Below, piece by piece: positions 538 through 1,251 of a DNA stretch of 64,000 nucleotides. Every line of letters starts with the position of its first letter. Position 1 is the first letter of the stretch. The notes under the pieces were generated by a model. The model saw nothing but the letters and a program-made list of their open reading frames with translations, was not told the DNA's origin and ran no database searches. The stretch comes from Escherichia coli (GTDB taxonomy: Bacteria > Pseudomonadota > Gammaproteobacteria > Enterobacterales > Enterobacteriaceae): NCBI RefSeq assembly GCF_001677475.2, contig NZ_CP015229.1; one strand, given 5' to 3'. The position numbers and the translations under genes are program-made.

Positions 538-553
538 TGACAGGCGTTAGATT

Positions 554-651
554 GCCTGATGCGCTACGCTTATCAGGCCTACGAAGAGCGTGCAATATAT
601 TGATTTTGCAAGATTGTGTAGGCCGGATAAGGCGTTTACGCCGCATCCGGC
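554..651. repeat. REP/BIME palindromic unit pair
   Basis: gcctgatgcgctacgcttatcaggcctac ... tgtaggccggataaggcgtttacgccgcatccggca: typical E. coli REP palindromes; a nearly identical ~100-bp copy lies at 58909..59006. Confidence 0.85.
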
Positions 652-681
652 ATGAACAGTGTGCATTTTGGCAATAAATAT

Positions 682-708
682 GAAACCAACTGTCATGTCG
701 GTTTTTTT
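682..708. terminator. Bidirectional intrinsic terminator hairpin (A-tract / stem / T-tract)
   Basis: gaaaccaac-tgtcat-gtcggttttttt; stem flanked by an A-run upstream and T7 downstream; near-identical to the hairpin at 1161..1189. Confidence 0.6.
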
Positions 709-754
709 AAAGGCCGAAGGTGGTAAACCTTCGGCCTTAGCTACGTTTCCTCAG

Positions 755-838
755 TTATTCAATAAACTGACGGATCAGTTCCAGCAGCGCGATTAGCGCC
801 TTAAGAACGATGAGAACTTTATCGAGAAAAGTTTTCAT
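755..838 (-). CDS. Candidate type I toxin: 27-aa amphipathic peptide MKTFLDKVLIVLKALIALLELIRQFIE (DinQ/TisB-like)
   Basis: ATG at 838-836 (minus), TAA at 757-755; SD AAGGGAG 6 nt upstream; SD lies in perfect palindrome ctcccttaagggag (845..858); peptide matches my recollection of DinQ (shared ALIALLELIR core). Too short for the ORF track. Confidence 0.5.
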   Translation of the reverse strand: MKTFLDKVLIVLKALIALLELIRQFIE

Positions 839-844
839 CCGTTG

Positions 845-858
845 CTCCCTTAAGGGAG
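845..858 (-). promoter_or_regulatory. RBS-sequestering palindrome upstream of the candidate toxin ORF
   Basis: ctcccttaagggag is its own reverse complement; a 5-bp stem / 4-nt loop would occlude the GGGAG Shine-Dalgarno. Confidence 0.5.
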
Positions 859-1063
859 AAAGACAATCACAGCTTACCCTTACGTTGCCTGTAACTATGA
901 TTTTCTTCATGTGCTAGATGAGGACTGCCTCTCTCCAAATTAGAGCACCAGAATCAGCACCACCTGTATCCTGACCAGGACTTAAAAGTACTTTTCCGCA
1001 CTGCGGTAATCCCTTGAGGCAGTATCACTACTAGCGTCGGGATTGTATCGCCAGCATAGCTGT

Positions 1064-1092
1064 TTGAATATGTAGGCATCCTGACTTATAAT
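1064..1092 (+). promoter_or_regulatory. Sigma70-like promoter for the candidate antitoxin sRNA
   Basis: TTGAAT (1064-1069), 17-bp spacer, perfect TATAAT (1087-1092). Confidence 0.5.
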
Positions 1093-1098
1093 TCACTT

Positions 1099-1189
1099 GC
1101 TAGATGAGGACTGTTTCATTTCTGCCCGGAACCACCAAGTCTTGGGCGGAAAAAAAATAAAAAAACCGACTGTCATGTCGGTTTTTTTA
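1099..1189 (+). ncRNA. Candidate antitoxin sRNA (~90 nt), Agr/IstR-like, divergent from the toxin gene
   Basis: Predicted start ~7 nt after the -10; 5' end contains tgctagatgaggactg (1098..1113), identical to 912..927 and so complementary to the minus-strand toxin 5' UTR; ends at the terminator hairpin 1161..1189. Confidence 0.45.
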
Positions 1190-1251
1190 TATCTGTATTC
1201 TGGTGCAACCATTCTGTTCTCACGACAATCGCCGTTTCAGAATACCGCCCA

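Follow-up and report, generated by a model that had tools for sequence, protein, structure and literature searches.

A dinQ-agrB-like module in the Rhs-free spacer between ybbP and mnmH of Escherichia coli

The junction between ybbP and mnmH was analysed in a 64,000-nucleotide stretch of Escherichia coli DNA (contig NZ_CP015229.1 of assembly GCF_001677475.2), referred to here as the window. The open reading frame (ORF) list agrees with the initial annotation in ending ybbP at 537 and placing mnmH from 1252, which leaves a spacer of 714 bp (538-1251). Instead of the RhsD island that occupies this position in E. coli K-12, the spacer harbors a cluster of repetitive extragenic palindromes (REP), of the kind forming bacterial interspersed mosaic elements (BIME), and a 572-bp module related to the dinQ-agrB locus of K-12. 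The features of the locus are the following:

1-537, plus strand: 3′ end of ybbP (ABC transporter permease), stop codon included, the left anchor; from the ORF list and the RefSeq annotation of matching genomes.
548-657, no strand assigned: REP/BIME cluster with two REP palindromes (~551-577 and ~618-652); from the sequence, and colinear with the B2.3 and E. albertii spacers.
666-1237, no strand assigned: DinQ-like type I toxin-antitoxin module, 572 bp; precisely missing in strain B2.3, with homology to K-12 dinQ-agrA.
683-709, no strand assigned: first copy of a 27-nt hairpin repeat (AAACCAACTGTCATGTCGGTTTTTTTA) that resembles a terminator when read on the minus strand; direct repeat D1 (96%) and terminator scan.
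710-738, minus strand: GC-rich hairpin (GGCCGAAGG...CCTTCGGCC) just 3′ of the toxin ORF, the probable terminator stem of the toxin mRNA; inverted repeat I3, aligning with the K-12 dinQ 3′ hairpin.
755-838, minus strand: toxin ORF of 27 aa, MKTFLDKVLIVLKALIALLELIRQFIE; from translation, an NCBIfam match and the RefSeq label 'dinQ'.
845-858, minus strand: Shine-Dalgarno sequence (SD) AAGGGAG, located 6 nt upstream of the ATG at 838 and enclosed in the hairpin CUCCC-UUAA-GGGAG; from the sequence and comparison with K-12.
906-935, minus strand: antisense target in the 5′ untranslated region (UTR) of the toxin mRNA, where the plus strand repeats the 5′ end of the AgrB-like RNA; direct repeat D2 (906-927/1092-1113).
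1042-1047, minus strand: putative -10 element (TACAAT) of the toxin promoter, with a start near 1035; suggested by eye and by alignment with K-12.
1064-1092, plus strand: sigma-70 promoter of the AgrB-like RNA (TTGAAT, 17 nt, TATAAT); 10/12 matches in the promoter scan.
1100-1190, plus strand: AgrB-family antisense RNA gene, single copy; Rfam RF02891 and terminator scan.
1163-1189: partner copy of the 27-nt hairpin repeat; direct repeat D1.
1252-2346, minus strand: mnmH, also termed selU or ybbB (tRNA 2-selenouridine synthase), the right anchor; from the ORF list and RefSeq annotation.
2415-3341, minus strand: allS, beyond mnmH; from the ORF list.
From 3571: allA, beyond allS; from the ORF list.

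The RhsD element of E. coli K-12 was reportedly described by Hill and colleagues. In K-12 MG1655, the interval between the end of ybbP (522,830) and the start of selU (530,132) measures 7,301 bp and contains rhsD, ybbC, ylbH', ybbD', ylbI' and ylbG. This annotation matches the K-12 map given in the initial annotation (an RhsD element with ybbC, ylbH and ybbD between ybbP and mnmH), and the K-12 interval is thus not of the ~0.7 kb size seen in the window. An Rhs island is also found at the ybbP-mnmH junction of O157:H7 EDL933. Alignment of the window with K-12 and EDL933 revealed that homology ends at 543, 6 nt past the ybbP stop codon, and restarts at ~1250, while base-level similarity to K-12 may already start 14 nt short of the mnmH stop, at a CA(G)AATAC motif. 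Positions 544-1249 have nothing in common with K-12, where the island stands in place of the whole spacer, REP cluster included.

No traces of the Rhs island could be detected in the window. When RhsD, YbbC and YlbG were used as tblastn queries over the full 64 kb, the best match had an e-value of 0.3, and the whole K-12 island gave no match there when used as a blastn query. A large YD-repeat core ORF accompanied by tip and immunity genes, as expected of an RhsD-type element, is absent between ybbP and mnmH in the window. The proposed absence of Rhs from this junction, and of Rhs core remnants, is therefore borne out by both the gap in the K-12 alignment and the remnant searches. The accompanying proposal, that the absence of Rhs exposes the small module, is not, because the K-12 island replaces the spacer from 6 nt after the ybbP stop codon to approximately the CAGAAT motif, so that both the module and the REP cluster are missing from K-12. 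The Rhs difference at this junction is structural rather than a statistical pattern, and chance is not at issue. Over 5,346 bp, spacer included, the window is matched at 100% identity by a public contig (DACZAV010000007.1; GCA_016118615.1), which argues against an assembly artefact. The window shares no more than 97.8% identity over 20 kb with any of 5,426 complete E. coli genomes, and its source lineage seems, by this comparison, to lie outside the well-sampled E. coli phylogroups.

The occupants of the junction were further surveyed in these 5,426 complete genomes, where strains with at least 80% of the module covered were counted as module carriers. The RhsD-type allele, recognised by the K-12-type ybbP-rhsD junction, is present in 2,856 genomes, while the 572-bp module (666-1237) is present in 1,314, being chromosomal and single-copy in every case. 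A third occupant, a fusion of Hcp/TssD to a toxin followed by four DUF2931 genes, was found in 572 genomes, and at least 457 genomes have an empty, REP-only junction of the Nissle/B2.3 type. The initial annotation had treated the window as carrying a single Rhs-free form, but the empty REP-only state, the module, the Hcp-toxin/DUF2931 island and rare scars are all Rhs-free. The module and Rhs are alternative, essentially mutually exclusive occupants of one site, as 1,293/1,314 module carriers show the compact contiguous ybbP-REP-module-mnmH arrangement (at least 80% of window positions 1-2400 covered) and K-12 has neither the module nor the REPs. Strain B2.3 aligns with the window through 665 and restarts at 1238, lacking exactly 666-1237, and a single comparison thereby contains three alleles, namely the empty form with REPs only (B2.3), the REPs plus the module (the window) and the Rhs island (K-12). 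The ends of the module carry neither a target-site duplication nor terminal inverted repeats, and a transposon-like insertion was rejected.

Outgroup states were derived from mnmH loci sampled at one genome per species. E. albertii has a REP-only spacer, the junction of which (...GCGCA|CAGAAT...) coincides in position with that of E. coli B2.3, while Escherichia sp. E1V33 carries the full module at the same site. As E. albertii and the E. coli B2 strains share the same empty junction, parsimony suggests that the REP-only spacer is probably ancestral in Escherichia, and the module and the Rhs island would therefore be separate later occupants. On these few outgroups, we infer that the module was inserted into the REP-only spacer and that the Rhs and Hcp islands each took the place of the entire spacer. 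A divergent species representative labelled 'E. coli' (L008, 11110-11199) carries a 92-bp scar consisting of the first 44 and last 75 bp of the module. This is the expected product of recombination between the 27-nt hairpin repeats at 683-709 and 1163-1189, and the module can therefore be lost by repeat-mediated deletion. The Hcp island of E. whittamii (L007, 1070-4652), in which a 2-kb Hcp/TssD gene with a C-terminal extension precedes the four DUF2931 genes, has junctions identical to those in E. coli AVS0467 (L087, 12301-16978). This island also swaps the last codons of mnmH, which is 1,107 bp rather than 1,095 bp in length.

A mosaic arrangement was observed in O157:H7 TR01 (L086, 9001-9035), in which an Rhs island occupies the left part and the mnmH-proximal end consists of the final 35 bp of the module and module-type sequence; EDL933 has unrelated sequence where TR01 carries these 35 bp. 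By its sequence, this mosaic looks like a recombination tract from a donor carrying the module or a scar. The MnmH and YbbP protein accessions of TR01 also differ from those of EDL933. In Citrobacter and Raoultella, a 377-389-aa porin-like protein is encoded in the mnmH-ybbP interval (L011, 11072-15226; L017, 11154-12287; L023, 11166-12335), and some Citrobacter additionally harbor MetN/MetI/MetQ-like transporter genes. None of these porin-like and MetNIQ-like genes occurs at the Escherichia junction itself.

The REP sequences of the window (GCCTGATGCGCTACGCTTATCAGGCCTAC and TAGGCCGGATAAGGCGTTTACGCCGCATCCGGCA) are imperfect consensus palindromes in an intergenic position, as is characteristic of REP/BIME elements. 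The cluster is present in both the empty and the module forms of the spacer and absent from the Rhs form of K-12. Queries containing the window REPs match tens of places per genome (184,923 and 174,829 places in total). Partial matches to REP-derived Rfam families (naRNA4, 621-657; ES036, 575-617) fall below the gathering score. Further weak Rfam matches in the spacer, to mir-509, rimP, STnc370, STnc50, OrzO-P, RNAI and engA, were also below the gathering score and were dismissed as chance matches, mostly to A/T-rich terminator hairpins.

Over 525 bp the module aligns colinearly with K-12 dinQ-agrA at 64% identity (e-value: 8e-36), and it is a diverged paralog of K-12 dinQ-agrAB. Its 27-aa peptide can be compared with the K-12 DinQ peptide (VIDKAIIVLGALIALLELIRFLLQLLN) and carries the DinQ signature of the NCBIfam model NF041472 (toxin_DinQ; Bitscore: 40.9 against a cut-off of 30; e-value: 1.8e-10). 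It scores 24.5 bits against the DqlB model NF041473, under the cut-off of 35, and no Pfam family matches this peptide. The RefSeq label of the product is 'damage-inducible type I toxin DinQ', and in most cases the annotated ORF is one of 51 aa (755-910), which starts at an upstream ATG without a ribosome-binding site. The SD of the 27-aa ORF lies within a hairpin that has a counterpart in K-12 at the same place (CUCCAU...AUGGAG), an arrangement for which a closed-SD hairpin model is presented in Kristiansen 2016 (PMC5066626).

The AgrB-like gene of the window matches the full length of the Rfam AgrB model RF02891 (Bitscore: 50.3, with a gathering score of 40). As in the AgrB family, it is divergent from the toxin gene without overlapping it and has its own promoter and a strong terminator hairpin (1157-1190). 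At its 5′ end the RNA repeats 906-927 and is thereby complementary to the toxin 5′ UTR. The predicted duplex between the two comprises 18 contiguous pairs, followed by further pairs including G-U, and reaches -74.4 kcal/mol, as against -45.0 +/- 4.1 kcal/mol (minimum -58.4) for 200 shuffled small RNAs (sRNAs) paired with the same 5′ UTR and -87.0 kcal/mol for the K-12 agrB/dinQ control. Cross-duplexes between the window and K-12 systems are weaker, at -57 and -64 kcal/mol. An experimentally validated DqlB-agrB system is carried by plasmid pOXA-48, in which a 4-nt mismatch abolished repression (PMC12365149). As the AgrB-like RNA of the window differs from K-12 AgrB at several seed positions, analogy with the plasmid system suggests that cross-repression by K-12 AgrB is unlikely and that the window and K-12 systems are mutually insulated.

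The dinQ/agrB mechanism has been studied in K-12 (Weel-Sneve 2013, PMC3567139; Kristiansen 2016, PMC5066626), where the toxicity of DinQ and its neutralisation by sRNA have been demonstrated (PMC3567139). The window module shares with K-12 dinQ-agrA-agrB the order of a terminator, a 27-aa toxin ORF, a long 5′ UTR and a divergent antisense RNA, as well as the peptide core ALIALLELIR, a ribosome-binding site in a hairpin and an antisense 5′ end complementary to the 5′ UTR. It differs from K-12 dinQ (b4613) in its DNA sequence (64% identity), in its site, which makes it a paralog and not the ortholog, K-12 dinQ being located in the gor-arsR spacer, in having one agr gene rather than tandem agrA and agrB, in its ATG rather than GTG start, and in lacking a LexA operator. 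The module thus has neither the LexA operator nor the gor-arsR location with agrA and agrB that characterise dinQ proper. The canonical dinQ locus was matched in 5,422/5,426 genomes, and module carriers therefore hold two DinQ-family systems.

With regard to LexA, the core motif CTG-N10-CAG does not occur on either strand of 538-1251. The LexA box of the K-12 dinQ locus (CTGTATGATTATCCAG) aligns with TAGTAGTGATACTGCCTC in the window and is not conserved, and a further candidate at 964-979 (CTGTATCCTGACCAGG) was rejected on account of its 9-nt rather than 10-nt spacing. As no LexA operator is found, the module is probably not SOS-induced, and the RefSeq 'damage-inducible DinQ' label is probably misleading for this LexA-box-less paralog.

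Homologs of dinQ outside gor-arsR have been described previously. Kristiansen 2016 (PMC5066626) defined a dql (dinQ-like) family (dqlA/dqlB) comprising 14 dql sequences, with chromosomal as well as plasmid-borne members, and noted that some strains carry dql in addition to dinQ; these dql loci are included in T1TAdb. The window module resembles this family in its location outside gor-arsR, in the over-long annotated N-terminus common among its members and in its putative AgrB-like RNA regulator, and differs in that its peptide does not reach the DqlB cut-off and in that plasmid copies are ~70% identical to it over the toxin half only.

Taken together, it is very likely that the 714-bp spacer represents one allele of a multi-allelic ybbP-mnmH hot spot of Escherichia, with a REP-only ancestor and a dinQ-agrB-like module, and not a K-12-like locus minus RhsD. 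The ancestor would probably have had a short spacer with REPs only, the state seen in E. albertii and in E. coli Nissle and B2.3. In the window allele, the 572-bp module lies at ...GCA|CAGAAT..., adjoining the mnmH stop. The 7.3-kb RhsD island would have replaced the entire spacer, REPs included, in about half of E. coli, K-12 among them, and the Hcp-toxin/DUF2931 island would have done so in ~10%. The alleles have most likely been swapped between lineages via homologous recombination through the flanking core genes. By homology with dinQ-agrB, a minus-strand mRNA of ~350 nt would encode a 27-aa inner-membrane toxin, with its ribosome-binding site held in a hairpin. Pairing of the 5′ end of the divergent 91-nt AgrB-like RNA with the 5′ leader of the toxin mRNA would, most likely and by analogy, prevent translation and lead to cleavage. 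The 27-aa peptide of the window locus is accordingly predicted, with K-12 as a guide, to be most likely toxic and neutralised by the AgrB-like RNA. In some lineages the module has decayed through a 108-bp deletion of the toxin start or through recombination between the 27-nt hairpin repeats.

The module of the window is 99.3-99.7% identical to those of many complete E. coli genomes. When the window, two E. coli carriers and E1V33 were compared, the spacer differed by 0.6-1.1% and the 3′ end of ybbP, mnmH and allS by 1.2-5.8% in all six pairwise comparisons (Fisher p 0.04 to 5e-9). The spacer is thus 2-10x less diverged than the adjacent coding genes, including in comparison with the separate species-level lineage E1V33. 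The low spacer divergence reflects either recent spread between lineages by recombination or strong constraint on the whole spacer.

Several observations weigh against the allelic interpretation or parts of it. Constraint, instead of recombinational spread, could be the cause of the low spacer divergence, and the empty-first polarity is drawn by parsimony from few outgroups. Approximately 227 genomes (4%), among them empty variants of smaller or greater length and 18 partial matches to the module, fall outside the four classes of the census. With regard to function, ~14% of carriers are without the toxin start, and selection to keep the toxin is thus not universal. Partition-function folding gave an unpaired probability of 0.2-0.4 for the SD at all 5′ truncations, with no clear switch, the K-12 transcription start being too imprecise to serve as a control. 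Furthermore, the toxin promoter was read by eye, as it is not called by the strict promoter scan and has an awkward -35 spacing.

Loss of Rhs, through deletion of the RhsD island from a K-12-like ancestor, would be consistent with the nature of Rhs elements as recombination hot spots that can be lost (PMC2935791), with the majority status of the Rhs form and with the TR01 mosaic, which by joining the Rhs island to the last 35 bp of the module indicates that alleles do recombine. A simple deletion cannot, however, recreate the REP cluster, which is absent from the Rhs form and colinear with the spacers of E. albertii and B2.3, nor does the window hold any trace of Rhs, YbbC or YlbG, and we regard this explanation as very unlikely. 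In a variant of it, which is conceivable, an incoming module allele replaced an Rhs allele by recombination in the lineage of the window. Import of the module from a conjugative plasmid with a dinQ-like addiction module is extremely improbable. Such sequences do occur on 1,669 plasmids, 1,464 of them conjugative, and plasmid DqlB-agrB is a proven addiction module (PMC12365149), but the plasmid relatives are ~68-72% identical over the toxin half only (module positions 35-322), three near-identical 'plasmid' matches are records of 1.2-4.9 Mb and hence chromosomes, the peptide fits the DinQ rather than the DqlB model, and the separate lineage E1V33 has the module at the same site. On the basis of the low identity and the restriction to the toxin half, a plasmid origin was rejected.

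The module could also be a decaying relic that no longer functions as a toxin-antitoxin pair. A variant found in, for example, CFSAN061770 has a clean 108-bp deletion (816-923) which removes the toxin ATG, the SD and part of the antisense target and keeps the AgrB-like gene, apparently leaving an orphan antitoxin. As the 816-923 segment is present in 1,135 genomes, ~180 carriers are truncated in this manner, and the scar form of L008 likewise points to loss. The absence of a LexA box, the weak-looking toxin promoter and the changes found in the window and in none of three other carriers, namely a G for A at 1054, between the divergent promoters, and two additional A's at 1150-1151, in the A-run that separates the two hairpins of the AgrB-like RNA, would also fit a relic. 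In the window itself, however, the ORF, SD, hairpin, antisense target, AgrB-like promoter and both terminators are intact; the 108-nt toxin-start segment shows at least 99% identity in 1,133/1,135 genomes; and the sole ORF difference in E1V33 (position 806) is synonymous. A relic is therefore considered unlikely, and an intact DinQ-like module within a multi-allelic junction is preferred.

Additional RNA elements above the Rfam gathering score are located elsewhere in the window. Two tandem matches to the sok antitoxin RNA (57326-57481 and 57829-57985, plus strand; Bitscore: 84-87) imply two hok/sok type I toxin-antitoxin loci. The remaining matches are to the STnc480 sRNA (14308-14374, plus strand), a tRNA gene (35801-35874, plus strand) and the REP-derived sRNA family ES036 (58930-58971, minus strand).

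The ybbP-mnmH junction corresponds to Rhs 'locus 3' of Jackson et al. 2009 (PMC2935791), with ybbA upstream and ybbB downstream, for which presence or absence was recorded per strain. The window has this same junction and none of the RhsD element. While the published picture is one of presence or absence, the census adds no fewer than four further states, namely the empty junction, the DinQ-like module, the Hcp-toxin island and scars. The islands of Hcp with a C-terminal toxin (Hcp-ET) and DUF2931 immunity proteins, which belong to E. coli type VI secretion, occupy the same slot and are, like Rhs, a polymorphic-toxin cargo; they are absent from the window, where neither their proteins nor their DNA gave a match in the 64 kb, and are unrelated to the module in sequence and mechanism. 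Literature on RhsD together with ybbP yielded incidental mentions only, and no description of a multi-allelic Rhs/Hcp/DinQ-like/empty slot was found in a literature search of partial coverage. The Rhs-free junction is thus an ordinary, already catalogued strain polymorphism, and the module a member of a described family.

The absence of Rhs as proposed initially is in itself of little consequence, given that the polymorphism of the site is catalogued and the small gene is already annotated as DinQ in RefSeq. Its practical value lies in the correction of the map, in that K-12 is not the reference state at this junction and 'Rhs-free' covers several alleles. Modest leads are offered by the multiple alleles of the toxin slot, by the paralog without a LexA box and by a spacer divergence that is anomalously low. 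We can further envisage, as a speculative and rather doubtful extension, that ybbP-mnmH is a dedicated 'toxin slot' of Escherichia, with three unrelated toxin systems (Rhs, Hcp-toxin/immunity and the LexA-independent DinQ-like module) as mutually exclusive alleles and the module as a selfish placeholder. The module would then spread by recombination, which would explain a ~99% identical spacer beside flanking genes differing by 4-6%, and it may penalise its own replacement through post-segregational killing. If so, the junction would constitute a compact natural system in which a chromosomal type I toxin-antitoxin module is set against interbacterial-toxin islands at one integration site.

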